Shown: positions 12,225 through 55,782 of the stretch, piece by piece | Layout of the letters: each line of letters begins with the position of its first letter | Numbering within the stretch: the stretch's first letter is position 1 | DNA from: a virus | Lineage: Duplodnaviria > Caudoviricetes | DNA length: 61,670 bases | Virus record (IMG/VR): IMGVR_UViG_3300042402_004691 | Span: 1 to 61,670 of that record | Direction: 5' to 3' (one strand) | Program-made: the position numbers and the translations under genes | Notes under the pieces: model-generated | Database searches by the model: none | What the model was told of the DNA's origin: nothing | Seen by the model: only the letters and a program-made list of their open reading frames with translations

Positions 12225-13472
12225 ATGGCAATACAAAATATTAAAGAAATAATTAATAACAGAGGATATGTAATTAATCCGGATGATAGAAAAATCTTCG
12301 AAGAGGGAGATTTACAATCATTTTTTGGATTTAGTGAAAATGATGCGATTGAGTTTGTAATATATGATGTTAATAACAATCAATTACCACAATTAGATGG
12401 TACATCGGTTAGATATATAAAATTAACAAATGAAAATATAAATGATTATTTTTTAATACCTGAAGGAACTACATTTCAACGATATCAATTACCTAAAGAA
12501 TATTTTATTGATATCGAACGGTTGATGAGTGAAGCTGGATATACTAATGGAATTTTTAAAACTCAAGTAACATTAATTAATAAAAGAGCTGGTAGTGAAA
12601 AGCAGTATGATAAATTGTGGATACAAGAAATATCACCATCTAGAACGGAAGTTAGATTGTTTCCATTAAAAGAGGGTGTAGCGTTAAGTCCTGAATTGAA
12701 AATAAGATTTGATGCATTTATAAACGATAGAGAGTTTAGAGAAGATACTATTGCTTATTTATTTGAGTTTATTGAAAACATAAAACCAATTGAAATATCC
12801 ACATTTTTAAAATCTAAGTATTCAACATTTTGGTTAGATAATTTAGTTAATGAATTTAAAATAGCAAGTTTTGAATTGTTTGTAACTACTATATATGAAA
12901 AGTTTGTTCAATCTTGTTTATATGAGTTTACAAACAGAGTATCGGATTTGACTAATTTAAATTACGGTAAATATAAATCTACAAAACCACCAATTACTTT
13001 ATCTAAAGAGTTGGTAGTTTCCATTTGTAACAAAATTTTGGTAGAAACAATTAATTATTATTTACCAAGACAAGATAATAGAAATCAAACAAATACTATA
13101 GCAGATTTTTCACCATCAGTAGATGAAGTTGGTGAAATTTTACAAAGTAAAACAAGCGATACTGTATATAATGCGAAAACGGTTGAAATTAAATTTGCAG
13201 AAATAACATATCCAGTTATTACAGAAAAACAAGCTACATTAGCAGCCGCTATAAATAACGAAATGGATAACTCAAACACCACCGTTGCAACTGCGGATGG
13301 TGAAGCTGCATACAACCCAACTGATCCACCTACTGAAACTGGTACAACCGGTGGTGCTAGTGGTCCTACTACTACAACTGGAGATGGTGCAGCTGAAGAT
13401 ACTAAAGGACAGACTGGTCAATTTAATTATGGACTAGCTAATGGACCAAAACCAAGAGTTGGATTTCAATAA
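12225..13472 (+). CDS. Putative baseplate protein
   Basis: IQEISPSRTEVRL motif; operon context; Thr/Gly-rich C-tail. Confidence 0.65.
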   Translation: MAIQNIKEIINNRGYVINPDDRKIFEEGDLQSFFGFSENDAIEFVIYDVNNNQLPQLDGTSVRYIKLTNENINDYFLIPEGTTFQRYQLPKEYFIDIERLMSEAGYTNGIFKTQVTLINKRAGSEKQYDKLWIQEISPSRTEVRLFPLKEGVALSPELKIRFDAFINDREFREDTIAYLFEFIENIKPIEISTFLKSKYSTFWLDNLVNEFKIASFELFVTTIYEKFVQSCLYEFTNRVSDLTNLNYGKYKSTKPPITLSKELVVSICNKILVETINYYLPRQDNRNQTNTIADFSPSVDEVGEILQSKTSDTVYNAKTVEIKFAEITYPVITEKQATLAAAINNEMDNSNTTVATADGEAAYNPTDPPTETGTTGGASGPTTTTGDGAAEDTKGQTGQFNYGLANGPKPRVGFQ

Positions 13473-13491: not shown

Positions 13492-16400
13492 ATGACAGAT
13501 TTACAATACATTATTAATTTAAAATCAAATGTATCTGATGCTGAGATATTATTAAATGGTGAGCCCAAAGGAACCTCTCCAAAGAGTATAACTTTAACTA
13601 CAAAGGAAGTACAGGACAACTATAGTGGGCGTGTAAATATAACATTACAAAAAACAAATTATACTCCTAGTACTAGATATGAATTGTTTCTTGATAGAAA
13701 TCCTGCCTATGATAGCTTTGTAGTACAACAAAGTCAGCAGCAAGGACGTGATTTTGATCCCACTCAAGATAACACTGAAGTTTATTCAAATATCCCTCAA
13801 TTTATTTTAAGAGTAAATAAATATGAAAATAATGTTTTAGCACAATATCAACAAGATCTTACTAATCAATTACTTGAGTTAGATTTTAACTTAACTGCTT
13901 CACAAAATAATAATGCAGGTGATGATAGTGGACAGGATGAGGAACTACAGGGATTTAAGGTAGCTGTAAATGGATTATTATCTTCTGCTAAATTTATTGT
14001 TAATAAAACTGAACAAATAGTAATTGACAAAAATGCAGCAGTATATAATTTCAAAACAGGTGATGCTATAGAAATTGTATCTTCAGATATTACTAAATTT
14101 AGAGTAACTCAAATTACGGCTAGAGGAATTGGAATAGACTCTTCTCAAAAAGTTGAAAATGACTTACAAAGTTTAAGATTTGCAGTTGCAGTTACTAGAC
14201 CATTATCAATAACAATTGATACTACCGAAGTCCCTCCAATTCAGACCGAAGTTCCTAATATAAGTTTGGTGAAGCCGGATGAAAATAGAAAATATAATAT
14301 AAATGCTAAGGGGGATTACCCAATAGGAATAAGAAAAAATGGTGTAGTAACTAGATTACGAGTTGTTGTTGGAGAACAAGTTATAACATATAGTGATATT
14401 CCTGCAGTTGAAACGGAATTTGTAATCACAATACCTGAAAAATATTTAACATCAATTGGTGCATATAATATACAAATTATTCCTGCTAATAATCAAGGTG
14501 ATGGTCCTCCTATTAATGTTCTACTAAATGTAGTTAATGAAGTATGGGTTGGTGTGCCTGATATAAAAAATATAAGATTTCCATCTAGAATAGAAGGACC
14601 TGATTATGTTGGATATGATGTAGATTTTGAAATTGGATATGAAAGTGTTAATACCGATTGGGTTAAGATAGCTCTTGCTGCTTCACTTGTGGATGGTCAA
14701 AGCCCTTCTTTTATTAAAGGACCGGCTACTGGAAAAATTACACTAAATATTAAAAAGTTATTAGAATTGCCAGGAGTTCAATTTTCTGAGAATGAAACTG
14801 AAATCGGTATAACTCTTAACTTAATTCCTTATAACGAAAGTGGTATATCTGTTGTAACAGGTAAAACGGAAACTTTACAAATCGCATTTTCTAAAAGTTC
14901 TCTTACGATACCTAGAAATATCGCCGTAAACAGAATTGCTGAAGGATTTGTATCTCAATTTGATGCTAAAATACTAGAAACCGAGTCCTCTAAATATTTA
15001 ACACATGCACTCCATTTAGGTAGTGGTAATAATAAAGTAATTACAACTTGGACAGGTAGTCAAGGTTCTCTTATTTTAAAATTATATGAACCAATACCAA
15101 CATCGGTTCAACCAAATCAACAAGTTTGGATTTCTAAATATCAATCTAATCCAGTAATAGAAACTGTAACTCTTAGTGGATTAGAAATCGAATTTTGCTC
15201 TCCATTAAAAGGACCTAATTTTTCATTAGAGCCTGATAATGGTATTGGATATAGTATATACGATGAATTGATTGCAAGTGGAAGTCAAACTTCTAATGAC
15301 TTGGTTTTAAAGTATTTAAAATCTAGAACTATTGATACTAGTAAGCTAAATATAGAATATGTATCAGGTTCTAATGAATACTTATTTGAAAATTTTGTAA
15401 ATTTCGGTTCGGCTGAAGAAAGAATACATAATTTTTTCTATAAAATAAAATTAATAGAAAATTATCAAGCAAAACTGCAATCATTAACATACGCAATTAG
15501 TGTGACTGATGGAAATCTATTAACAGAAGATTTGTATCTAATGATAACTGAATTTGGTGATTTTAGTATTGACATTGAAAAAATAACATTTTCAAATCCA
15601 TCCGAAGAGGCTGAAGCTAAAAAAATTATTCAACTAATTTATAATATACTTAAATCATTTGATGGGTTTGAAAAATATTTATTAAAAGCATCACCAAATG
15701 ACGTATTGGGATATCCTAAAGATGTGGTAGTTAGTGAATTTCCATTAACAATTACACCTGCCATCGATAGTAGCGCTCCTGTTATTTCATTTAAATTAAA
15801 ACCAACAGATGATGTAGATGTTATAAGTTGGTACGAATTTGCGATTGATACCGCATCTGAATTTGATAAATACAATCCGAATTATATAATAAATAATATA
15901 CCAGAGTTTATATATAAAGATAATGATAATGCAGATTTCCTATTATTTTTAGATATGATAGGTCAGCACTTTGATACAATTTGGGTTCATATAAATGGAT
16001 TAACTCAAATGAAAGTTGTTGATGAAGCTGGTATAAAGGGTATTCCAAAAGATTTTGTATTAAATATGCTTAAATCTTTAGGTTGGAATGGTAGAAGAGC
16101 ATTTGACTCTCAATTCCTTTGGGAATACGCATTAGGACAAAATAAAGATGGTTCACCTAAATACTCAACATCATTAGAAGATGCAAATAATCAAGTTTGG
16201 AGAAGAATACTAAATAACTTACCATACCTATTAAAGCATAAGGGAACTTCTAGAGCTATGAAAGCTATTATGGCGTGTTATGGTGTTCCACAATCTATGT
16301 TGACAATAATGGAATTTGGTGGACCGCAAGACCCAACCGCGGGAGGAGTAACAGAATTTACATTTGATGATAGAACCGCTGCATTAAGATTAGAACCTAG

Positions 16401-22278: not shown

Positions 22279-22737
22279 ATGAATTGGTTACAAAATGGTG
22301 CTGAAGTTACAGAAGATATAATACCAGATGAAGCGATTGGGTTTATCTATATGATAACCCACGTCCCATCTGGAAAATACTATATTGGTAAAAAATCACT
22401 AGAAAGTGTTCGTACTGTTAAAATTGGAAAGAGAGAACTCCAAAAAATAAAAGAGGAACGAAAAGCAGTTGGAATGGGTGGAAGGGCTCCTCTTAAAAAG
22501 AAAGTTCGTAAAGCATCTGATTGGGAAAAATACTATTCATCAAACGAATGGATAAACGAACAAGTTAAAGAAGGTAAAGAGGGCGAATTCAAACGAGAAA
22601 TAATTCAGTTCTGTAATTCCAAAAAATCACTATCTTATTACGAAGTATATTGGATGTTTAAGTACGATGTGCTTTTAGATGATAACTGCTTAAACGGAAA
22701 CATTAGTGGAAAATTTTATCGAAAAGACTTGGTATAA
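22279..22737 (+). CDS. GIY-YIG family nuclease
   Basis: GFIYMITHVPSGKYYIGKK...YYSS...FKREII...E...N motifs. Confidence 0.8.
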   Translation: MNWLQNGAEVTEDIIPDEAIGFIYMITHVPSGKYYIGKKSLESVRTVKIGKRELQKIKEERKAVGMGGRAPLKKKVRKASDWEKYYSSNEWINEQVKEGKEGEFKREIIQFCNSKKSLSYYEVYWMFKYDVLLDDNCLNGNISGKFYRKDLV

Positions 22738-22759
22738 TGTAAAATATTTCGTATATTTG
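22729..22759 (+). promoter_or_regulatory. Bacteroidota housekeeping-sigma promoter (-33/-7)
   Basis: TTGG(22729) N19 TATATTTG(22752-22759), fits TAnnTTTG. Confidence 0.75.
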
Positions 22760-22788: not shown

Positions 22789-22989
22789 ATGAACTTACAA
22801 CAAATAGGACAGAAGTACAAAGTATCTGACAATTTTTTAAACTCAAAGGATGATGCGTTATCTATAGCAGCTACATCTATTGATGATTTGATATTCAAAC
22901 TGCAGTATAACATTCCAAAAGAGGAGCTTATAAAAAATCTAAAAACTTTATCCTCTTTTTTAAGAGATGTGAAAAAATCTACTTTTTAA
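22789..22989 (+). CDS. Hypothetical small protein
   Basis: 66-aa ORF with its own host-type promoter. Confidence 0.7.
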   Translation: MNLQQIGQKYKVSDNFLNSKDDALSIAATSIDDLIFKLQYNIPKEELIKNLKTLSSFLRDVKKSTF

Positions 22990-34782: not shown

Positions 34783-35064
34783 ATGACACAAATTAAAGAA
34801 GTATTACAAACTGAAGTAATTGAAAAATTAAAATTCAACCAAGCTCAAGCAAACGAAGCGGTGGTAAATTTAGGACAAATTGAATTGAGAATTATTGATT
34901 TGAAAGATGAGTTAGATGCAGTTCAACAATTTAAAGAAGATGTTCTAAAATCTTATAGAACCGCAGTTGATACAATCAATACCGAACTTAAAGTATTGGA
35001 AGAAAAATATCCAAACGGTGAAGTTGATTTGAATGAAGGGGTTGTCATTTTCGAAAAAGAATAA
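34783..35064 (+). CDS. Small coiled-coil protein, paralogue of 39817-40143
   Basis: LGQIELR...EKYPNGEVDLNEG vs LGELHVR...EKYPGGRINLQEG. Confidence 0.75.
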   Translation: MTQIKEVLQTEVIEKLKFNQAQANEAVVNLGQIELRIIDLKDELDAVQQFKEDVLKSYRTAVDTINTELKVLEEKYPNGEVDLNEGVVIFEKE

Positions 35065-35119: not shown

Positions 35120-36763
35120 ATGAAAAAAAGGTTACTATACATCTGCCCACACTTATCCACTGGTGGGCAACCACAATATGTTTACAAACAAATAGAAAGT
35201 TTCAAAGATGAATTTGAAATCCAAGTTGTAGAAATACATAATAGTGGAGGAACTGCATTTGTGGTTCAAAAAAATAGAATAAAAAACACAGTACCACTTC
35301 ATACATTGGGTGAAGATAAAAATGATGTGTTAAAGGTAATAGAAAACTTTTCACCTCATATTATTCACTTTCACGAAATTCCACAATTCGATTTATCGCA
35401 CGAAACATTAGATGTTATATTCAGTGAGAATAGAAATTATCACATAGTAGTAACAACACATGGTTCATTGACTAATCCAGATGAGATAATTTATCAACCT
35501 GATAGATATGTTTTAGTTAGTGAGTGGAGTAAAAGAAAGTTTGAAGGATTGGGTATCGAAACTGATGTGTGGCAATATCCAATTGAAAACTATGCATTTG
35601 ATAAAGCCGAAGCTAGAAAAAAGCTGGGGTTTGAAGATGATTGGAAACACGTCTTAAATGTAGGTTTATTCGCTCCTGGTAAAAATCAAAAAGAAATATT
35701 TGATATAGCTAGAGAATTAGAACAATACAAAATAAAGTTTCACTTCGTAGGAAATCAGGCAATGAACTTTGAACATTATTGGAAACCACTATTGGATACA
35801 AAGCCTGATAATTGTATAGTGTGGGGGGAGCGAAACGATGTTGATACTTTCTACGCGGCATCCGATATCTTTTATTTTTCATCTATATTGGAATTAAACC
35901 CATTATCCATAAAAGAAGCATTATCATATAAACTACCATCACTATTCCGTAGATTACACACTTATTTAGATACCTACGATAACAACCGATTAGTACACTA
36001 TATTACTAACGATTTGGGTGATACTAAAAATAGATTGTTGAAATTGTTAGGATTGGAAACTACAAAGAGTGTAAAACCTAAAATACAGATAAAGCATCTA
36101 TTGACGAGACCTGATGATGAAAGGGAAATGTTGAGTATGAAATCCATAAGCACTTTACAGAGATATGGGATAAATTATCAACCAATCGTTAATCAAGTAT
36201 ATGAGGGATTGGCTCCTGCTGAAAATTGTAGAAGACCTGAGCATATTAGTAAAGATAATAAACCAGGAGAATTATATCCTGGCGCTGGGTTAGGTTGGAT
36301 GACAGGTAGACATTACGGGTGCTATCTTGCACATAGAGGAGCATTGGAAACAATCGACAGTGAATATGATTACACGCTAATCTTTGAGGCAGATGCGTAT
36401 GTACATTCAACAATGGATGAGTTTGTGGATATTATATACAAAGGGTGTGAAATTATGGAAAGAGATGATGTTTATTTCCTATCCTTTGCGGATAATCCAT
36501 CTAGATACAAAGAGAGGATTAATGAATACTTTTCTAAAACAGGTTCTAATCAAGACCTTGCCCACGCTTATATTGTGAGAAATAAAGATAAAGAATGGTG
36601 GATGGAACGATTAAAAGATTGTGGATGGGATGTGGGAGACCTTTGGTACAATCATGTATTTGCAAATCATCCTAAACCTCGATACACAACAAATAAAGTT
36701 TATTCTAATCAGGGTGCTGGGTATTCTTTGTTAGATGAGACTATAAAAAAATGGGAGTTATGA
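35120..36763 (+). CDS. Two-domain glycosyltransferase (N-terminal GT4/GT-B, C-terminal GT25-like)
   Basis: HLSTGGQPQ, NVGLFAPGKNQ, ELNPLSIKEALS GT4 motifs; YGCYLAH...LIFEAD...AHAYIV GT25-like motifs; ATG at 35120. Confidence 0.8.
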   Translation: MKKRLLYICPHLSTGGQPQYVYKQIESFKDEFEIQVVEIHNSGGTAFVVQKNRIKNTVPLHTLGEDKNDVLKVIENFSPHIIHFHEIPQFDLSHETLDVIFSENRNYHIVVTTHGSLTNPDEIIYQPDRYVLVSEWSKRKFEGLGIETDVWQYPIENYAFDKAEARKKLGFEDDWKHVLNVGLFAPGKNQKEIFDIARELEQYKIKFHFVGNQAMNFEHYWKPLLDTKPDNCIVWGERNDVDTFYAASDIFYFSSILELNPLSIKEALSYKLPSLFRRLHTYLDTYDNNRLVHYITNDLGDTKNRLLKLLGLETTKSVKPKIQIKHLLTRPDDEREMLSMKSISTLQRYGINYQPIVNQVYEGLAPAENCRRPEHISKDNKPGELYPGAGLGWMTGRHYGCYLAHRGALETIDSEYDYTLIFEADAYVHSTMDEFVDIIYKGCEIMERDDVYFLSFADNPSRYKERINEYFSKTGSNQDLAHAYIVRNKDKEWWMERLKDCGWDVGDLWYNHVFANHPKPRYTTNKVYSNQGAGYSLLDETIKKWEL

Positions 36764-37899
36764 TATACGATAATTTAGTTAAAAACGAAAACAATAAAGT
36801 AGTACCTAAAAATACTATAAACATAAACTTTGTAAAGGGTGCGTTTGTTGAAGTTAAAGGTTCTAAGGAAGCAAATTATAGGATACGATTTGTAAATAAC
36901 ATAACTGGTGAGATGCCTTACGAAACTACTATTAGAAATAATATGTGGACTAGATGTACCATTGAATATTTTATAGAGTGGAGAATTGAGGTATATGAAA
37001 ACGAAGAGAGAATACATACCCATATTTACAATGCAGCTGATAAAAGAGTTTATATAGCATTTGACTCTAAAGCGTTAGGTGATACGATGGCATGGATACC
37101 TTATGTTGATGAGTTTAGAAAACAACATAAGTGTGAGGTTATATGCTCTACCTTTATGAACGAATTGTTTGTGGATACCTATCCTGAAATAGAGTTCGTA
37201 AAACCAGGTGTGGGAGTAAATAATCTCTATGCTATGTATTCATTGGGATTGTTCTATACTGAAGATGGTAGTATCAACAAACAAAAGAACCCAACCGATC
37301 CAAAATATCAACCAATGCAAAAAATGGCAACCGATATATTGGGAGTACAATACGAAGAGATAAGACCTAAGTTAAAGTACAATAAGTTAGATAGAAAAAA
37401 ACAAATCGCTATTGGTATACATGGAACTGCTCAATCTAAGTATTGGAATAACCCTACTGGATGGCAAGATGTTGTAGACTGGTTAAATCGTAAAGGGTAT
37501 AATGTAAAACTTATATCCAGAGAAGGAGATGGGTATATGGGTAATCGTCATCCAAAAGGAATTACTAGATTACAATCGGGTTCCATAGAGGGTGTTATAG
37601 ATGAATTAAAGAGTTCTGAGATGTTTATAGGTATCGGTAGTGGGTTGAGTTGGTTGAGTTGGGGATTGGGTGTTAAAACCGTTCTTATTAGTGGATTTTC
37701 GTATGACTGGGCAGAGATGCGGGACTGTATTCGTATATCTCCACCAAAAGGAAAATGTGAAGGTTGCTTTAACCGATTGAGATTAGATGCGGGTGATTGG
37801 AATTGGTGTCCCGATCACAAAGGAACTCAAAGACAATTTGAGTGTACTAAATCCATAACCTCTGAGATGATAATAAAAGAATTGGAAAAGGTACTATGA
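36760..37899 (+). CDS. TibC/Aah (BAHT)-family protein O-heptosyltransferase
   Basis: YFIEWRIEV, ALGDTMAWIPY, AQSKYWNNPTGW, FIGIGSGLSWLSW...VLISGF and iron-finger C-x2-C...WCP.H......FEC motifs; ATGA overlap at 36760. Confidence 0.85.
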   Translation: MIYDNLVKNENNKVVPKNTININFVKGAFVEVKGSKEANYRIRFVNNITGEMPYETTIRNNMWTRCTIEYFIEWRIEVYENEERIHTHIYNAADKRVYIAFDSKALGDTMAWIPYVDEFRKQHKCEVICSTFMNELFVDTYPEIEFVKPGVGVNNLYAMYSLGLFYTEDGSINKQKNPTDPKYQPMQKMATDILGVQYEEIRPKLKYNKLDRKKQIAIGIHGTAQSKYWNNPTGWQDVVDWLNRKGYNVKLISREGDGYMGNRHPKGITRLQSGSIEGVIDELKSSEMFIGIGSGLSWLSWGLGVKTVLISGFSYDWAEMRDCIRISPPKGKCEGCFNRLRLDAGDWNWCPDHKGTQRQFECTKSITSEMIIKELEKVL

Positions 37900-38279
37900 G
37901 GATTTGGATAAATGGTTGTTTTGATGTTCTTCACTATGGTCATTTTCGTATGATAGAATATGCTGCATCTTTAGGTGAGATGCTGGTAATCGGAATTGAC
38001 TCGGATGAAAGGGTTAAAAAAATGAAAGGAGAGGATAGACCATTCCATACAGAAACACAGCGTAAGTTTAATTTAATGCAACTCAAAGGGGTTAGTAATG
38101 TTGTGATATTTGATAGTGATGAGATGTTAAGAAGTCAAATTGAATTATACAAACCAAACATATTCGTAATCGGAAGCGATTATACAAACAAACCTATTAT
38201 TGGAGGAAACCACGCAGATGAAATTCGTTTTTTCGATAGGATAAAAGATTTTAGTACAACAAAAATATTAAAAAAATGA
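37896..38279 (+). CDS. rfaE2: Heptose-1-phosphate nucleotidyltransferase (HldC / RfaE domain II)
   Basis: NGCFDVLHYGH, GIDSD..VKKMKG.DRP, GSDY, STT motifs. Confidence 0.85.
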   Translation: MRIWINGCFDVLHYGHFRMIEYAASLGEMLVIGIDSDERVKKMKGEDRPFHTETQRKFNLMQLKGVSNVVIFDSDEMLRSQIELYKPNIFVIGSDYTNKPIIGGNHADEIRFFDRIKDFSTTKILKK

Positions 38280-38872
38280 TTGATGAAATTGTAGTAATTG
38301 ATAATGTTATACCGTCTTCTATGCAAAATCAAATAGAAGATTTATTTACATCGGGTAGATTAGCTTGGATTTTCTTTAAGGATATTGCGGTATCTCCGGA
38401 AGATATAAAAAGATTGAATATAAAAAAATTAACACCTGGAATTGCTTGTTATATAAAGCAAGATAATCCTAATTTTCTAAATGGGCAGTTGTATAATCTT
38501 GTAAAGATGATACCTGAAGCAGCGTGTAAACAAATAGATAAGCAATGTCTTGAAATCCATAATGCGAGAAGTTTTATGCATTTTCCGTTAAACGATGAGA
38601 TGCGGAAAGAATACGATAATGTGCATATCGATGTTCATTATCCACATTTAGTAGTTCTGTATTATGTAAACGATACGGATGGTGATACATTTATTTTTGA
38701 TAAAACTACTGTTGATTGTAAATACATAACAAAAGATACGAAACTCAATGTACTCAAAAAGGTGAGTCCTAAAAAGGGTAGAGTAGTTATGTTTAATGGT
38801 AATAGGTATCACTCTAGTTCTGGACCAACTAAGGATGTTAGATGTATTATAAACTTTAATGTTAAAATATGA
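38276..38872 (+). CDS. 2OG-Fe(II) oxygenase family protein
   Basis: HID...LYYVND.DGDT...PKKGRVVMFNG..YHSS...R. Confidence 0.8.
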   Translation: MIDEIVVIDNVIPSSMQNQIEDLFTSGRLAWIFFKDIAVSPEDIKRLNIKKLTPGIACYIKQDNPNFLNGQLYNLVKMIPEAACKQIDKQCLEIHNARSFMHFPLNDEMRKEYDNVHIDVHYPHLVVLYYVNDTDGDTFIFDKTTVDCKYITKDTKLNVLKKVSPKKGRVVMFNGNRYHSSSGPTKDVRCIINFNVKI

Positions 38873-39603
38873 GTAAAGTATTAATAATAGGGGAAAATTG
38901 TATAGATGTATTTGTTTATGGACATTCAAAAAGAAAATCACCAGAGGGAGCAGGACCAGTCTTTACTCCAATTGAAGAAGTATATGCAGATGGAATGGCA
39001 TATAATACGGCTAACAACATTGTTGCAATGGGGTTGGATGTAGATATCATAACTAACGCTGAAGAAATGATAAAGCGTAGATATTTGGATATGGATACCA
39101 ATCATTTATTTTTAAGAGTGGATGAAAACGATAAAGTATCTCAATATGATATCAACGAACTGCCAGATTTATCAAACTATTCTGCGGTTTTAATATCGGA
39201 CTACCACAAAGGTTTCTTAACCGAAGATGATATTAGTTATATAGCAGAAAGACATCCGTTGGTGATAGTTGATACTAAAAAAATATTGGGTGATTGGTGT
39301 AAGGAAATTAACTTTATAAAAATAAACCGAACCGAATACTTAAATAATGCAGAAGTTATTAACAACAACCAATGGTTGGTGGATAAACTACTAATTACAT
39401 TTGATAAGGATGGTACAATCCATAAAGGCGTTAGGTATCCTGCCGAAAATGTAGAAGTGGTGGATATATGTGGTGCAGGTGATACCTTTGTAGCAGGATT
39501 TACCAAAGAATACATCGAAACTGAAGATGTTGATAAATCCATAGTTTTTGCAAATAAAGCCGCATCCGTTGTTATACAAAAAAGAGGAGTAGGGATTTAT
39601 TAA
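38869..39603 (+). CDS. rfaE1: Heptose-7-phosphate kinase (HldA / RfaE domain I, PfkB family)
   Basis: VLIIGE.CID.F.YG...R.SPE, LRVD, ISDYHKG, KIN..E, DICGAGDTF motifs. Confidence 0.85.
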   Translation: MSKVLIIGENCIDVFVYGHSKRKSPEGAGPVFTPIEEVYADGMAYNTANNIVAMGLDVDIITNAEEMIKRRYLDMDTNHLFLRVDENDKVSQYDINELPDLSNYSAVLISDYHKGFLTEDDISYIAERHPLVIVDTKKILGDWCKEINFIKINRTEYLNNAEVINNNQWLVDKLLITFDKDGTIHKGVRYPAENVEVVDICGAGDTFVAGFTKEYIETEDVDKSIVFANKAASVVIQKRGVGIY

Positions 39604-39621
39604 AAAAAAAGTAAAAAAGAC

Positions 39622-39652
39622 TTGGAATTACAAAAATACTTTCGTATATTTG
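39622..39652 (+). promoter_or_regulatory. Bacteroidota-type promoter driving a non-coding region
   Basis: TTGG(39622) N19 TATATTTG(39645-39652). Confidence 0.75.
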
Positions 39653-39660
39653 TTCTAAGA

Positions 39661-39768
39661 AAATGAGAAAAGGTAGTTGAAGCCAACAACTAATAAAACC
39701 GATTGTGTGATGCCCAGTCATATTTAAGTATGACACGCTAAAAAGCCGGATACTACCGCCTCTCATTT
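39661..39768 (+). ncRNA. Candidate structured small RNA (6S-like rod with central bubble)
   Basis: AAATGAGA/TCTCATTT and GGTAGT/ACTACC closing helices, GTCATA/TATGAC apical hairpin, A-rich internal loop; starts just after the -7 element; no + strand ORF. Confidence 0.6.
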
Positions 39769-39816
39769 GAAAAATTAAAAAATTATATATTTATATACAA
39801 ACTAAAAAAAAATAAT

Positions 39817-40143
39817 ATGTCACTAGAAAATGTACCTGTAAAAAATTCAATTGAAATCGAAACTGTTAAGTTGGACGAAAATATTTTGAATGAACTTAAA
39901 GAATTCAACCAATCAATTGCTAACACTTTAACTGGATTGGGTGAGCTTCATGTAAGAAAGCAAGAACTGCACGAGGAACTTACCAGATTGGAAACTCTAA
40001 GAGGTGAATTGGAGCAAGAGTTCAAAGATAACAATAATTCTTTGAAGAAGAAAATTGATAAGCTTCAAGAAAAGTATCCAGGTGGTAGAATTAACCTACA
40101 AGAAGGAACTATCCAATATCAGCCTGAAGCAAATCAGCGATAA
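39817..40143 (+). CDS. Small coiled-coil protein, paralogue of 34783-35064
   Basis: Shared EKYPxG..L.EG C-terminus; ATATTTAT at 39787. Confidence 0.75.
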   Translation: MSLENVPVKNSIEIETVKLDENILNELKEFNQSIANTLTGLGELHVRKQELHEELTRLETLRGELEQEFKDNNNSLKKKIDKLQEKYPGGRINLQEGTIQYQPEANQR

Positions 40144-40238: not shown

Positions 40239-43200
40239 ATGAATAATTTAGGAAAATACTTAGTTGAAGAATTATTAAAAGAAATTGAAAATATTACAAA
40301 TTATGTTGTAGTATATTCAGGTAGATTTCAACCATTTCATAAAGGGCATTACGCAACTTACGAACATTTAGTTAAAAAGTTCGGAAAAGATAATGTTTAT
40401 ATTGGAACCTCCGATAAAACAGATAATCAAAAATCTCCATTTAATTTTAAGGAAAAGAAAACCATTATGACTAAAATGTTTGGAATATCTCCAAATAAAA
40501 TAGTTTTGGTTAAAAATCCTTATGCTCCAATGGAAATCCTAAAAAACTATGATGAAACTACAACTGCATTTATTACTGTAGTTGGTGAAAAGGATGAGCA
40601 GAGATTAGGTGGTAAGTATTTTACTCCATACAAAGGAGATTTGGATAGTGGATATAAAGATAAGGGATATGTGTACGCTTCACCTGCACAACCAAACGCA
40701 ATTAGTGGAACTGATGTAAGAAATTGGTTAGGAAAGGGTGAGATGGAAGATAGAAAACAACTTTTTAATAAAGCGTATCCAAAGTTTGATAAAAATATAT
40801 TTGATTTAATAACTAAAAAGTTAGATACCTTAAATGAGTCTAGTTCAATTGACTCGGGTGAACCTGACGTGGGATATTATGCGGATGGTACTAAACGAAT
40901 ACTGAATGGAGCTAAGCCAGAAATATGGTTTAAGCAAGGTGGATACATTCAGTTAGATAAACCTAAATCCGATTACATGAGAGGAAAGGGTAAGAATAAA
41001 GATACTGAGTCTCAATTCCGTAAAGTTACTTATGCGTTAAAGGGAGTTACCGCTCCAAAAACTGCTAAAGATAGTAAATCCAAAGTTGCACCATATCAAG
41101 TTGATAAATGGAAAAATGTAACATCTAAAAATGTAAAGAAAAAAGAAGATAGGTATTGGGATTTGGATAAAGTTAATGAAAGGATTTTTATACCAAAAGA
41201 GTTTATCGAAGAATGGGTTACTGAAAACTTAAATAGGATTTTAAGTGAAATATCAACATCAACTGCGGGACCTGCTACTAATAATGGGAAGATAGTAGAT
41301 GATGGACCTAATTTATTTTTTCCAAACTATGATACATTTAATGCTGTATCAAAAGTAAGAGCGGAGCAGATTGGATACACAATTTTCCAACAGATAATGG
41401 ATAAAAAGTATGAGGATTATTACGAACATCCAATATATCCAAAAGGACCACCATCAGTAGTTTCACCATTTCCTGCCGGAGTTATCGATGATGCATCCAA
41501 TGAAAAAGATTTAGCGGGTATTGAAGCATACGATGAATGGTATACTCACATCACTCGTTCTATGGCATTAGTGGGATATGAATTAGTTAAAGATTTTGAT
41601 AAATCATTTAAGGATTTGGCAATTAAAGATGCTGATAATATGAAGAAAGATGCTGGTGTAGAAAAAATAAAAAATACTGTTGTGGAAAGTGGTATGGGTT
41701 TGGCAATGGGTTACCCATCAAAAGAGCAACTCCTTCAAAAGAAAAAGGAAAGAGATGAGTTGAGAAAGAAAATGGATAAGGAAAGTGAATACTACCAAGC
41801 AGTAGAAGAAGATATTACTATACCATTGAATGTGGGTGATACGGTTTTAGGTGGCAAGTTTAAGAATAAAAAAATTGTGGTTAAGGATATAAGTAAAAAC
41901 GAAAAGGGAGAAGTGACAGTAAATGGAAAATCCCTATTAAAATACAGATTGATTGATGAAGCATACGATGAAGTAATTGCTGAATTGATGAAAGACCCAC
42001 AATTTGAAGGATTGTTGAGTGAAATACCAATGGCTGATTTACAACAACTTGATAAATTTGCAGATAAACAATTAGACCCTATTGATGTTGTATTAACCGG
42101 AAGACACTTTTTAGAAAGATTAGTTGATCCACGAAATAGTAAACCAATATCAGCTGCAGAACTTACTGGATTTTTTAAGAGATTGGCAAGAAAAAAGAAT
42201 GAGTTTGTGGAATTTCTTAAAAAATATGGTGAAATAGTTGCAAAGGATAACAGAACTAAAATCAACATTCCATTTATGCAACAGGCTAATAAGGCGATTG
42301 CAAAAACAATAATGAGAAAGGATGATTTTAAGACTCCATCACCTGAATTAAAGTTTGAAGTCATAACTGAAGATACTATAAAATACTTATCCAAATCATT
42401 GGGTATGAGTAGAAAAGATATGCCACAAATTAGTTCCAAACACATAGGAGATTTTGTGAAGTATCTAAACGATAAAGGAGTATCAGTATCACCATCAGTA
42501 ATAGATGTATCTAAAATTGGAATGACCCAAAAGGATATAAATGTGGATAAGGTAAAGGATTTATTGGGAGTGGAAAAATCCAACTTAGCAAAACCTGTTA
42601 TCATATCAAACGATGGATATATTTTGGATGGTCACCACAGAGTTGCAGCATTGTATAATGTGGATAAAAACTTTAAGTTAAAAACTATAAAAGTAGATCT
42701 AGGAATTAAGGATTTATTGAAAGCTGCGGGTGAGTTTCCAAAGGTATCATATAAGGGGATAGAAGAATATGCTGGATTTAAGACAAGTCATATTCAACCT
42801 GCTCCACCTATGAAAGGATTGGATGATCCTGATGATAATTGGAAAGATGTAAAAGAAGGATTGATTACAGAAGGTGGAGCGTATGGTCATATGAACCATC
42901 CGTTTGATACCGATATTAACTTAACTTTTGGGCAACTAAAGGATATTGTTAAAAAGGCATTGAATGGTGAATTGGAATTGACGAGAGAAAAAACCGATGG
43001 ACAGGCATTAGCAGTTAGTTGGGTAAATGGTAGATTGGTAGCAGCTAGGAACAAATCACACTTAAAGGATAAAGGTAAAGGTGCGATGGATATAAACGCA
43101 GTTGCTGCTAAGTTTGGTGGTAGAGGTGGATTAACCGATGCATACAACTTTGCAATGAAAGACCTTTCTGTTGCGGTTGATAAATTATCACAAAAGCAAA

Positions 43201-44069
43201 AAGATAAGATATTCGGTGGTGGTTCTAAGTTTATGAACTTGGAAGTTATATACCCATCATCAGTAAATGTTATACCATACGGACAGGCATTATTAGTATT
43301 TCACGGTACATTTGAGTACGATGAGGCTGGTAATATCATAGGTGAAGACCAGAATGCGGGTAAGATATTAGCGGGTATGATTAAACAGATAAATCAAAAT
43401 GTTCAATCCAAATATACTATACAAGGACCTCCTGTTGTAAAACTACCAAAGAACAAAGAGTTGAGTAAATCCCAACCTAAGTACTTTGCTATGATTTCTA
43501 AATTACAAAGTGAGTTTGGATTGAACGATAATCAAGGAGTAGCTGAATATCACCAAAAATGGTGGGAACAATTTATAGATAAAAATGCAAAAGGATTAGA
43601 TGCTCAACAAAAAATTGGATTAGTTAAGAGATGGGCATTTGGGGATAAAGGATTTAGATTAAAAGATATCGAAGATGAAACTATCCGTAATTGGGCAGAA
43701 GGAATTGATAAAACTGATCACTCAAAAATAAGTAAAGATAACTTAATGAAGTTTGAGAGAATATTTTTAGGAGTGGGAGCAGAAGTTCTATCATTTATGA
43801 GTTCAGTTCTAACTGTAAATCCGGATAAAGCAAAAAGAGCAATGGTTGATAGGTTAGAAGCCGCTATAAAGGATGTTGAAGCTAAAGGTGATGAAAAGCA
43901 GATACAAAAATTGAAATTGGAATTGCAAAGATTGCAAGATTTGGGAGGAGTTGATAAGATTGTTCCTAATGAAGGTATTGTATTTGTTTATGGTGGAAAT
44001 ACGATGAAACTAACTGGAGCATTCGCTCCTCTTAATCAACTATTGGGGATATTTTTTGATGGTAAGTAA
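40239..44069 (+). CDS. Multi-domain protein: HxGH nucleotidyltransferase, KOW-like, ParB/Srx-like and ligase-like domains
   Basis: GRFQPFHKGH...SGTDVR; VGDTVLGGKFK; PVIISNDGYILDGHHR; EKTDG; domains separated by xxE sites. Confidence 0.7.
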   Translation: MNNLGKYLVEELLKEIENITNYVVVYSGRFQPFHKGHYATYEHLVKKFGKDNVYIGTSDKTDNQKSPFNFKEKKTIMTKMFGISPNKIVLVKNPYAPMEILKNYDETTTAFITVVGEKDEQRLGGKYFTPYKGDLDSGYKDKGYVYASPAQPNAISGTDVRNWLGKGEMEDRKQLFNKAYPKFDKNIFDLITKKLDTLNESSSIDSGEPDVGYYADGTKRILNGAKPEIWFKQGGYIQLDKPKSDYMRGKGKNKDTESQFRKVTYALKGVTAPKTAKDSKSKVAPYQVDKWKNVTSKNVKKKEDRYWDLDKVNERIFIPKEFIEEWVTENLNRILSEISTSTAGPATNNGKIVDDGPNLFFPNYDTFNAVSKVRAEQIGYTIFQQIMDKKYEDYYEHPIYPKGPPSVVSPFPAGVIDDASNEKDLAGIEAYDEWYTHITRSMALVGYELVKDFDKSFKDLAIKDADNMKKDAGVEKIKNTVVESGMGLAMGYPSKEQLLQKKKERDELRKKMDKESEYYQAVEEDITIPLNVGDTVLGGKFKNKKIVVKDISKNEKGEVTVNGKSLLKYRLIDEAYDEVIAELMKDPQFEGLLSEIPMADLQQLDKFADKQLDPIDVVLTGRHFLERLVDPRNSKPISAAELTGFFKRLARKKNEFVEFLKKYGEIVAKDNRTKINIPFMQQANKAIAKTIMRKDDFKTPSPELKFEVITEDTIKYLSKSLGMSRKDMPQISSKHIGDFVKYLNDKGVSVSPSVIDVSKIGMTQKDINVDKVKDLLGVEKSNLAKPVIISNDGYILDGHHRVAALYNVDKNFKLKTIKVDLGIKDLLKAAGEFPKVSYKGIEEYAGFKTSHIQPAPPMKGLDDPDDNWKDVKEGLITEGGAYGHMNHPFDTDINLTFGQLKDIVKKALNGELELTREKTDGQALAVSWVNGRLVAARNKSHLKDKGKGAMDINAVAAKFGGRGGLTDAYNFAMKDLSVAVDKLSQKQKDKIFGGGSKFMNLEVIYPSSVNVIPYGQALLVFHGTFEYDEAGNIIGEDQNAGKILAGMIKQINQNVQSKYTIQGPPVVKLPKNKELSKSQPKYFAMISKLQSEFGLNDNQGVAEYHQKWWEQFIDKNAKGLDAQQKIGLVKRWAFGDKGFRLKDIEDETIRNWAEGIDKTDHSKISKDNLMKFERIFLGVGAEVLSFMSSVLTVNPDKAKRAMVDRLEAAIKDVEAKGDEKQIQKLKLELQRLQDLGGVDKIVPNEGIVFVYGGNTMKLTGAFAPLNQLLGIFFDGK

Positions 44070-54180: not shown

Positions 54181-54915
54181 ATGGCAAGAGAAGAATTTGA
54201 TATATATAATTATGTTCATAAGAACAAATTTAACTTAAAAGTTGAAGAACCTGCTCATGCAACTAAAGTTGCTAAAGCGTATAATGATATTCGTAAAACC
54301 AACATCAATGAAATTAAAATTGTTGATGGTAAGTTTTCATTATCAGAGTCATTAAGTTCTAATACAGATAGACCATTTGCAACTGAAGTTAAAAAGCACT
54401 TTTTGGAAATCATTTCTACATACACATCATTCCACGAACAAATGAAGAGAAACTCTGACATTGTGGAAACTGCTGATACATTAGGTGGTGTAATTGAGGC
54501 TGCTAAAACTCTCACATTGAAAGAAGCTGGTGATTGGTTTGATAAAGTAACGGTGAAGCGTAACATGAAAGAATTGGATAGGCTGGATACATCATTTGAT
54601 AAGGTAGCAAAAGAAGCCAGAGCATTAGACCAAAGATTACACGCACTTTACGAAGATATGGGTAACATTTTGGGAAGATACTACGAAATCTCAGACTTAG
54701 ATCCTAATGTAATGAGAGAGAGATTGGGATTAAAAGAAAAAGTTGAAGAGTCTGTATATAGTGTAGTTGTATCACAGAATGGTAAAAAGATTGGCAAGAA
54801 AACTGCATCTAAATCTCAATTAAAAGAAACTGTTTCTAGATTAAAATCAAAATATACTAACTCTACCATTTCTATATTAAATGAGAGTGGTAAGGTTGTA
54901 AAGATTGTAAAATAA
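54181..54915 (+). CDS. Hypothetical head-module protein
   Basis: ATG at 54181 after the protease stop; LYEDMGNILGRYYEI; appended module after VEE|S. Confidence 0.7.
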   Translation: MAREEFDIYNYVHKNKFNLKVEEPAHATKVAKAYNDIRKTNINEIKIVDGKFSLSESLSSNTDRPFATEVKKHFLEIISTYTSFHEQMKRNSDIVETADTLGGVIEAAKTLTLKEAGDWFDKVTVKRNMKELDRLDTSFDKVAKEARALDQRLHALYEDMGNILGRYYEISDLDPNVMRERLGLKEKVEESVYSVVVSQNGKKIGKKTASKSQLKETVSRLKSKYTNSTISILNESGKVVKIVK

Positions 54916-55744: not shown

Positions 55745-55772
55745 AAAAGGTTTGGAAATCCAAACCTTTTTT
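55745..55772 (+). terminator. Intrinsic terminator overlapping a -33 element
   Basis: AAAAGGTTTGG AAAT CCAAACCTTTT plus T-run. Confidence 0.75.
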
Positions 55773-55782
55773 CGTATATTTG
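55751..55782 (+). promoter_or_regulatory. Bacteroidota-type promoter, probably leaderless transcript
   Basis: TTTGG(55751) ... TATATTTG(55775-55782), ATG at 55788. Confidence 0.75.

Follow-up and report, generated by a model that had tools for sequence, protein, structure and literature searches.

A small non-coding RNA gene with a three-way junction fold and its relatives in environmental phages

The DNA studied here, referred to as the window, is the whole of IMG/VR record IMGVR_UViG_3300042402_004691 (61,670 bases, completeness estimate 34%). It has a G+C content of about 31%, its long open reading frames (ORFs) are almost all on the + strand, and its large terminase is closest to those of Flavobacterium phage vB_FspM_immuto (55.3% identity) and Microcystis phage Mel-JY01 (55.1%). 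Many lake-water metagenome runs contain window DNA. We read the window as a fragment of a large myovirus with a freshwater Bacteroidota-type host. Between a PfkB-type sugar kinase gene and a gene encoding a 108-amino acid (aa) coiled-coil-like protein, the + strand contains the element that is the subject of this work, located at positions 39661-39768. This element is a small non-coding RNA gene of about 108 nt, and its relatives are roughly 70-125 nt long.

A first-pass annotation of positions 39622-39768 had described a structured RNA behind a strong Bacteroidota-type promoter and had interpreted it as a possible phage mimic of 6S RNA. The observation of a structure and a promoter is confirmed, and the outer, inner and apical stems were all read in the sequence at the positions it had given (Table 1). 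The + strand region 39655-39775 has a predicted folding energy of -26.0 kcal/mol, compared with -15.07 +/- 2.84 kcal/mol for 200 dinucleotide shuffles, none of which folded as well (z -3.85); the minus strand was less exceptional (z -3.12, 3/200 shuffles). The + strand ATG at 39663 does close after five codons, as had been stated (ATG, four further codons and TGA). This ORF was rejected as coding since it is located inside the closing stem P1, whose sequence varies across the family described below, and a 64-aa minus-strand ORF (39572-39766) that overlaps P1 was judged spurious on the same grounds. A likeness to the tag end of transfer-messenger RNA (tmRNA), an in-frame UAA UAA after GCC AAC AAC, was also discarded because it is broken by one-base deletion variants.

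Relatives of the element were collected by scanning for its core. A scan with an 18-mer core sequence gave 18 viral stretches, 13 of which are true members by our own reading; the remaining five represent one chance coding sequence. The 13 members share GUUGAAGCCAACAACUAAUAAAACCGAUUGUGUG, a variable hairpin and AAAGCCGGAYAC, enclosed by closing stems of differing sequence. Later exact-pattern scans gave 18 and then 36 viral stretches, many of the latter 36 being chance matches. When the two segments of helix P2 were left free, at least 119 viral stretches were obtained, some of which are chance matches in coding sequence, and an exact-pattern scan of metagenomes gave at least 120 stretches, chance coding matches included. 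The counts on the fold given below are based on the 142 distinct members obtained from the exact-pattern scans.

Comparison of these members shows that the RNA folds as a three-way junction, in the order P1, UGAAGCCA, P2 with the loop (N)U-AAUAAAACCG-A, GUG, P3, A-rich linker, AAGCCGGAY and P1'. For P1, all 11 pairs change on both sides among 59 members, and 89.2% of the cells are paired, a share that drops to 32-56% with the partner strand slid; none of 500 shuffles did as well. Helix P2 is formed by the four bases that follow UGAAGCC-A and the four bases that begin one position past AAUAAAACCG. Its four pairs are all Watson-Crick in 142/142 members, which use 13 versions of the helix (ACAA/UUGU, ACAC/GUGU, UCAA/UUGA, AUAG/CUAU and GUAG/CUAC among them). 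In the covariation count for this helix, 4/4 pairs are changed on both sides and 100% are paired. When P1 and P2 were analyzed together on 98 diverse members, 15/15 pairs changed on both sides and 91.8% of 1435 cells were paired, against 29-53% with a slid partner, and the covariation score was reached by none of 500 shuffles. Thus, the covariation that the first-pass annotation had proposed to look for in related phages is present. The same data overturn its "large A-rich bubble": the bases in question form a 4-bp helix (39686-39689/39703-39706) capped by an A-rich loop. The rod-with-bubble architecture is refuted along with it.

The junction strands are conserved. The final A of the strand between P1 and P2, which the search patterns left free, is invariant and lies opposite a G, both in 142/142 members. 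The last base of the strand between P3 and P1' is C in 80 members, U in 59 and G in three; the consensus is AAGCCGGAY. The length of the P2 loop is conserved as well (12-13 nt across the family). Both sides of a possible pairing between CCG of this loop and CGG of the P3-P1' strand are invariant, partly through the search patterns, and we infer that they may form a pseudoknot. The third arm, P3, behaves differently. It is represented by 96 distinct segments of 13-49 nt in the 142 members; 133 of these members fold there with at least three pairs, and in some the arm shrinks to 2-4 bp. Since P3 types recur in members that are otherwise different (for instance in locus L002 and the distant locus L214), P3 modules appear to have been exchanged between copies. 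The + strand of the window is taken to be the RNA strand because of the G-U pairs in P1, the promoters and the co-orientation of the members with tRNA and tmRNA genes.

Table 1. Positions of the RNA gene, its parts and other features discussed in the text. Positions without a locus name are those of the window.
Feature	Position	Strand	Remarks
P1, 5' strand	39661-39677	+	Outer 39661-39668 (AAATGAGA), 3-nt internal loop 39669-39671, inner 39672-39677 (GGTAGT)
J1/2, UGAAGCCA	39678-39685	+	Identical in 141/142 members; UGAAGCC fixed by search patterns
P2	39686-39706	+	ACAA 39686-39689 with TTGT 39703-39706; 13-nt loop CUAAUAAAACCGA 39690-39702
J2/3, GUG	39707-39709	+	Free in last pattern; GUG in 137/142 members, GUA in 5/142
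P3 variable arm	39710-39742	+	Hairpin 39717-39722 (GTCATA)/39729-39734 (TATGAC) plus A-rich linker
J3/1, AAGCCGGAU	39743-39751	+	AAGCCGGA fixed by three of five search patterns
P1, 3' strand	39752-39768	+	Inner 39752-39757 (ACTACC), loop 39758-39760, outer 39761-39768 (TCTCATTT); ends UUU
Host-type (Bacteroidota-style) promoter	39619-39652	+	GACTTGG 39619-39625 (TTG 39622-39624), -7 box TATATTTG 39645-39652
Second promoter copy, GACTTGG...TTTCGTATATTTG	22726-22759	+	Precedes 66-codon ORF 22790-22987
Third promoter copy, TTTGG...TTTCGTATATTTG	55751-55782	+	Sequence match
Phage-specific promoter-like motif of next gene, TATATTTATATACA	39786-39799	+	Outside the RNA
108-aa coiled-coil-like gene	39817-40143	+	Downstream neighbor, outside the RNA; only weak, sub-threshold Pfam matches
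GOLLD RNA	L068:5924-6337	-	
GOLLD RNA	L056:3190-3603	+	
GOLLD RNA	L067:3204-3616	+	
GOLLD RNA	L063:2014-2427	+	
GOLLD RNA	L310:346-754	-	
GOLLD RNA	L165:13-423	-	
GOLLD RNA	L312:1-308	-	

The promoter claimed in the first-pass annotation is borne out by comparison within the window and across the family. Its downstream part, TTTCGTATATTTG, is located at 39640-39652, so that the -7 box ends about 8 nt 5' of the closing stem, and transcription is inferred to start at about 39658-39661. The 12-mer TTTCGTATATTT is found exactly at two further + strand sites of the window (22747 and 55770), each time after a TTGG element. With 4 occurrences against 3.6 expected, the window shows no excess of the generic pattern TTTG-N17-21-TANNTTTG; the promoter call is made because of the additional window copies and the conservation before family members, and not because of the consensus alone. 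According to a rough classification by script of what lies upstream of the 142 members, 54 have their own, homologous promoter of this Bacteroidota type, with a -7 box that ends 14-27 nt before the junction and thereby immediately ahead of P1. Fourteen are located directly behind a tRNA and at least 21 behind the stop codon of a gp32-like gene, 52 have an unclassified upstream context and one is at a contig end. At the other end of the RNA, a run of at least three T is present after P1 in 91/142 members (within 7-20 nt after the junction), and in members printed with their 3' flanks P1 is often seen by eye to be followed, within ~10-30 nt, by the next promoter-like TTTGG element.

The gene downstream of the RNA was said to have a motif of its own, and this is confirmed. 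The motif TATAYTTATATAYA occurs six times in the window where 0.97 occurrences are expected, and 0/100 shuffles reached six. The sites are at 2415, 34749, 39786, 44092 and 57136 on the + strand and at 15909 on the minus strand. Behind each + strand copy a listed ORF starts at a distance of 30-40 nt, and in all probability the motif is a middle or late promoter of the phage itself.

We gathered 42 related viral loci by means of the 1276-aa protein encoded next to the 108-aa gene, and used them to compare the surroundings of the RNA. Twelve of these loci (L007-L014, L034 and L039-L041) keep the 108-aa gene without the RNA, and in them the preceding gene ends about 60 nt before it (tblastn coordinates). 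In seven of the twelve, for which the intergenic sequence was read, the TATA(C/T)TTATATATA motif is present and the RNA is absent. Promoter and RNA were found at the same place in only one other contig, IMGVR_UViG_3300037189_009343 (L002, identical to L003 and L045), whose 1276-aa protein is 97% identical; in agreement with this, a covariance model applied to 57 sources found the RNA in the window and in L003 only, and both an nhmmer search with the region and a scan for the closing-stem pattern returned the close relative alone. The PfkB-kinase neighbors brought in no related viral loci. Thus, promoter and RNA constitute an insertion, present in the window and one close relative, between the sugar kinase gene and the 108-aa gene with its separate phage promoter motif. 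As to whether the element is a discrete RNA or simply the leader of the gene at 39817, the evidence supports the former, which the first-pass annotation had proposed: the RNA has its own promoter and the gene is kept without it in 12 loci. The 6S-mimic function that the annotation attached to the RNA is not supported. In a complete relative (G001), one of the five jumbo phage genomes described below, the RNA is located at 158,996-159,092, ~94 kb from the homologue of the 1276-aa neighbor gene.

The two contigs that carry the insertion hardly differ in the flanks, in P1 or in the core, and in L002 the apical arm has been replaced by an unrelated, longer hairpin. This swap of P3 (L002:1040-1075 versus window 39710-39742) thus separates contigs that are ~97% identical around it, and the replacement resembles the P3 of L214.

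Some features of the neighboring genes are worth recording. The 108-aa protein has a distant paralogue in the window, a 93-aa coiled-coil-like protein (34783-35064; ~27% identity, tblastn E ~1e-8), and each of the two genes is preceded by the TATATTTATATA motif. The run of four genes just 5' of the RNA (36751-39603) begins with a gene that has a sub-threshold Pfam heptosyltransferase match (GT9, TibC N-terminal domain), followed by a cytidylyltransferase-like gene, one with a sub-threshold 2OG-Fe(II) oxygenase match and the PfkB-type sugar kinase; together they look like a phage-borne set for synthesis and transfer of nucleotide-heptose. The 1276-aa protein (40239-44069) has an N-terminal cytidylyltransferase-like domain (Pfam) and a middle part that is highly variable in length among the 42 relatives. 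Its DGHHR and K-x-DG motifs, noted by eye, might belong to ParB-like nuclease and ligase-like domains.

The distribution of the family was studied in several collections. In 185,579 prokaryote species genomes a three-anchor pattern, which covers only the commonest version of P2 (~45% of viral members), gave one match, an ORF-like stretch without the stems that we read as a chance match. Among 50,697 cultured-phage records, blastn with the 901-nt region gave no match, and BLAST with the 86-nt RNA gave 13 short partial matches with E values of 3 or worse and coverage of at most 38%; the sequence of the best of these, LR745208.1, was read and is not a family member. A marine-type member likewise had no match in cultured phages. 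In the cultured relatives Flavobacterium phage immuto and Microcystis phage Mel-JY01, E values reached only 0.16 and 0.42, and no laboratory phage with the RNA was found. BLAST against E. coli genomes gave no match, which argues weakly against plain sequence mimicry of conserved E. coli RNAs and against antisense pairing to them. A search for an antisense partner in 189 loci showed the reverse complements of the conserved strands neither in excess on the strand that encodes the RNA nor at a constant offset, and no such match recurs in the vicinity of the RNA. In three lake DNA sequencing runs the summed contig depth over 39674-39707 was 23.5-390 compared with about 4 in the flanks, and contigs break there, as expected for a segment common to many genomes.

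Within genomes the RNA is essentially a single-copy element. There is one copy in the window record, and each of five jumbo phage genomes that are 95-100% complete has one strong copy (70-82 bits), with weak extra model matches of at most 28 bits. The best of the weak matches, in a complete 274-kb phage (G002:C1:24348-24430, minus strand, the same as L322:1501-1583), is a divergent second copy that carries UGAAGCUA, UAUUAAAACCGA and AAGCCGGAA, and it may be a decaying or specialized paralogue. The weak second matches in general (28 bits in G002, 19 and 18.7 bits elsewhere) may be decayed paralogues.

No known RNA corresponds to the element. Rfam 15 at the gathering score gave no match in the window, cmscan at 39500-39900 with E up to 10 gave two meaningless matches and nothing credible, and a search of 18 diverse loci with E up to 5 gave 23 matches, none of which is on the RNA. 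ARAGORN found no gene in the window, and in the other loci the Rfam tRNA model matched neighboring tRNAs and never the RNA. Literature searches returned no description of it. The parts consulted of PMC10690425, PMC5737381 and bioRxiv 10.64898/2026.10.21.760802 describe nothing like the RNA. The first of these reports 10,006 unnamed candidate structures from IMG/VR, and the family may be among them. Judged by these comparisons, this is a new RNA family, large, confined to phage-like DNA by the pattern tested and without an Rfam model, its newness being at the level of the family.

Outside the immediate relatives of the window, the RNA is found in two recurrent settings. The first is in the company of other RNA genes. 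ARAGORN identified a same-strand tRNA-Met(CAU) at most 300 nt upstream in 56/141 loci; in 31/141, a tmRNA is located no more than 1.5 kb upstream. Both counts are lower bounds as the loci are cut. The commonest of these tRNA-Met genes start with C and end with GCAAC, which gives the C1-A72 mismatch typical of bacterial initiator tRNA, and on that basis we take them to be initiator-type. Of the 56, nine also have the GGG/CCC anticodon stem. The 14 members located directly behind a tRNA begin 5-7 nt after a tRNA-Met and have no promoter of their own. In 7 of 22 loci scanned with Rfam, the GOLLD RNA is present ~570-660 nt downstream (Table 1). Lake jumbo phages that have both RNAs (GOLLD scores of 183-307 bits) share the order tmRNA, initiator-type tRNA-Met, small RNA, GOLLD and an array of 15-26 tRNA genes; the window itself contains none of tmRNA, initiator-type tRNA-Met, GOLLD or a tRNA array. 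In one uncultured phage contig, a manA RNA motif (RF01745, 68.4 bits, L291:2426-2627, + strand) is located directly upstream of the member at 2632-2746. In the second setting, the commonest outside such RNA islands, the RNA is located between a gp32-like single-strand-binding gene (in 26 loci) and a RecA gene (in 23), and a Shine-Dalgarno site follows it.

Together, these observations lead us to favor, with modest confidence, the view that the element encodes a folded RNA that is a free-standing molecule and acts in trans, and whose invariant junction and loop are the predicted site, a surface or pocket, at which a partner shared by the hosts binds. That the gene is free-standing is indicated by the promoter-to-stem units of 54 members and by the single strong copy per complete genome. 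Host RNA polymerase would transcribe the RNA as a separate molecule, its paired ends (P1) would protect it, and it would act in trans. The invariant junction and loop would fold into a single defined shape in three dimensions, a surface or pocket that the CCG:CGG pseudoknot between loop and junction would probably close, and the partner bound there would not differ between the hosts concerned. Judging by the RNA genes found alongside, this partner most likely belongs to translation or to RNA metabolism, or else is a small molecule.

Several observations weigh against this view. The invariance of UGAAGCC, AAUAAAACCG and AAGCCGGA is largely imposed by the exact search patterns; the positions free of this effect are the junction A, GUG and the P2 flanks, and the covariation of P1 and P2 is likewise free of it. 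The sequencing-run evidence consists of contigs in all four runs, and that from an RNA library is a single metatranscriptome contig without transcript ends. This contig, 231 nt long and 96% alike, spans from inside the RNA (39685) to the next gene (39914), and it fits read-through or library DNA equally well as it fits a discrete RNA. A generic terminator scan found no site at the element, where the window has only the stem followed by UUU. In addition, at least 21 members located between gp32-like and RecA genes and the 14 behind tRNA have no promoter of their own; there the RNA belongs to a longer transcript, and it could act in cis or as a processing signal. Finally, the RNA may have been inherited within one broad phage clade, and not be held constant by a universal partner, because Microcystis phage Mel-JY01 is near both the RecA of the RNA-bearing Shine-Dalgarno phages (their closest match, 56.5%) and the window terminase (55.1%).

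A more specific version of a trans-acting role, which we regard as a minority possibility, is that the RNA, made in quantity by the phage, works as a stand-alone aptamer or as a catalytic RNA acting in trans, and captures or alters one conserved host molecule. One candidate for that molecule would be a nucleotide signal of anti-phage defense or of the stringent response, the RNA then serving as a "sponge"; another would be a part of translation initiation that the adjacent initiator tRNA also serves.

A role in RNA processing, in which the element, as a self-cleaving ribozyme or other processing module, would cut polycistronic transcripts of the phage such as tRNA-Met plus RNA or the message of gp32 and recA, is rather unlikely. 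The concentration of conserved nucleotides in the junctions, with stems that vary by compensation only, would suit a ribozyme, as would the lack of a fixed gene association, the members that start just behind a tRNA-Met and have no promoter or that lie between two cistrons, and the fact that small ribozymes are known beside phage tRNAs. However, the 54 members that are promoter-to-stem units contain nothing to process, there is a single strong-scoring copy per genome, and the more than 30 conserved positions are above the number in known small self-cleavers. No Rfam ribozyme model matched with E up to 10 at the locus or with E up to 5 in the 18 loci, and this includes the small self-cleaver families (hammerhead, twister, twister-sister, pistol, hatchet, HDV-like and hairpin). 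The junction strands, with lengths of 8, 3 and 9-10 nt, were compared by eye with the hammerhead core and do not match it. Comparisons by eye with HDV-like, twister, hairpin-ribozyme, preQ1, K-turn, signal recognition particle and L11-binding rRNA motifs gave no fit either, and are not counted as evidence.

Equally doubtful is a cis-acting element, which would serve either the downstream gene as a riboswitch-like leader or the upstream operon as a terminator or a stabilizer of its 3' end. The metatranscriptome contig joins the RNA to gene 39817, the members that follow a gp32-like stop codon end ~10-20 nt before the RecA ribosome-binding site, and the T runs after P1 in 91/142 members are all in line with such a function. 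It has to be set against these that the downstream partners vary (RecA, coiled-coil protein, GOLLD RNA or nothing), that the closest relatives have the homologue of 39817 expressed without the RNA, that in the examples read the 3' strand of P1 does not overlap the ribosome-binding site, and that more than 30 conserved unpaired bases exceed what a terminator needs. The family does share with riboswitches a conserved junction core with compensating stems, whereas a constant 5'-leader position before one class of genes and an expression platform were not found. In the same way, it resembles three-way-junction riboswitch aptamers in a P1 formed from the two ends, conserved junctions, compensating stems and a possible loop-junction pseudoknot, and differs from them in having no fixed downstream gene class, no expression platform, many stand-alone copies and no match to an Rfam riboswitch.

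The interpretation with which the first-pass annotation had started is very improbable in the light of these data. As a 6S-like decoy, the RNA would imitate an open promoter, bind the holoenzyme of the host housekeeping RNA polymerase and shut off transcription that depends on the host sigma factor. The RNA does resemble 6S and 6S-Flavo RNA in being small, free-standing and driven by its own, host-type promoter, with its 5' and 3' ends paired in a long stem; its length of 108 nt equals the 108 positions of the 6S-Flavo model, and the fold of the single sequence leaves the region between P1 and P3 largely unpaired. The 6S reading is unsupported by the searches, however: the 6S model RF00013 had no match in the record with E up to 10, the 6S-Flavo model RF01685 scored only 14 bits at 54297 and 12.4 bits at 12885, both elsewhere in the record and far from the cut-off of 85, and the cmscan comparison with both models that the annotation had proposed gave nothing credible at 39500-39900 with E up to 10. 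Instead of a rod with a central bubble, covariation gives a three-way junction with a 4-bp P2 arm and a conserved junction sequence. The apical arm can be nearly absent, with 2-4 bp in some members, presumably too little for a mimic of open promoter DNA, and the shortest whole RNAs measure ~70 nt. Moreover, the junction strands and the P2 loop are the same in phages that have strong Shine-Dalgarno sites and no Bacteroidota-type promoter, whose hosts, and hence sigma factors, would differ. 6S RNAs conserve shape rather than sequence, and the sequence invariance observed here is the opposite.

Similarly improbable is a DNA-level element (a miniature inverted-end transposon, a recombination site or a replication origin): a lineage-specific insertion of ~170 bp with inverted terminal sequences, at differing positions in related phages, would be in keeping with one, but there is one copy in the window record and one strong copy in each of the five complete genomes, not the many copies with fixed terminal repeats of miniature inverted-repeat transposable elements, the inverted ends vary with only their pairing kept (including G-U pairs that work only in + strand RNA), the members are co-oriented with tRNA and tmRNA genes, and no target duplication was seen by eye at the ends.

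Among other phage RNAs, the nearest analogy in placement, although unrelated, is given by the small stable RNAs rnaC and rnaD (species 1 and 2) of phage T4, which are ~120-140 nt long and close the phage tRNA cluster, immediately following a tRNA gene. They have no similarity to the family in sequence or model (in the T4 tRNA region, with filters off, the best match of our R1 model had 12 bits and was outside both), and rnaC carries a tRNA-like GGGUUCGAAUCCC arm that the family RNA does not have. To our knowledge, the function of the T4 species 1 and 2 RNAs is still unknown. GOLLD (RF02032), ROOL and manA RNA are like the family in being phage-borne, located beside tRNA genes, found mainly in lake and environmental sequence, and without known function. 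GOLLD was reportedly described in 2009 and is said to form cages; we know of no function assigned to it since its description. The RNA studied here is ~10-fold smaller than GOLLD, is a separate unit with a promoter-like element, noted by eye, between the two, and the R1 model does not match GOLLD.

If our interpretation is correct, this RNA would be among the more widespread and most tightly conserved unnamed phage RNAs, present on hundreds of environmental phage contigs and, by the pattern tested in 185,579 prokaryote genomes, absent from cellular genomes. At 70-125 nt, and with a clear minimal version consisting of P1, P2 and the junctions with P3 dispensable, it is suited to structural work and to ligand- and protein-binding work. 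Should the aptamer or catalytic reading hold, the family would make up a functional class of its own, new among viral RNAs, with an invariant three-way-junction pocket as its defining feature. For the trans-acting RNA in general, knowledge of the partner could reveal how host translation or RNA metabolism is brought under the control of large phages, and could provide a first clue to what the RNA islands of jumbo phages are for.

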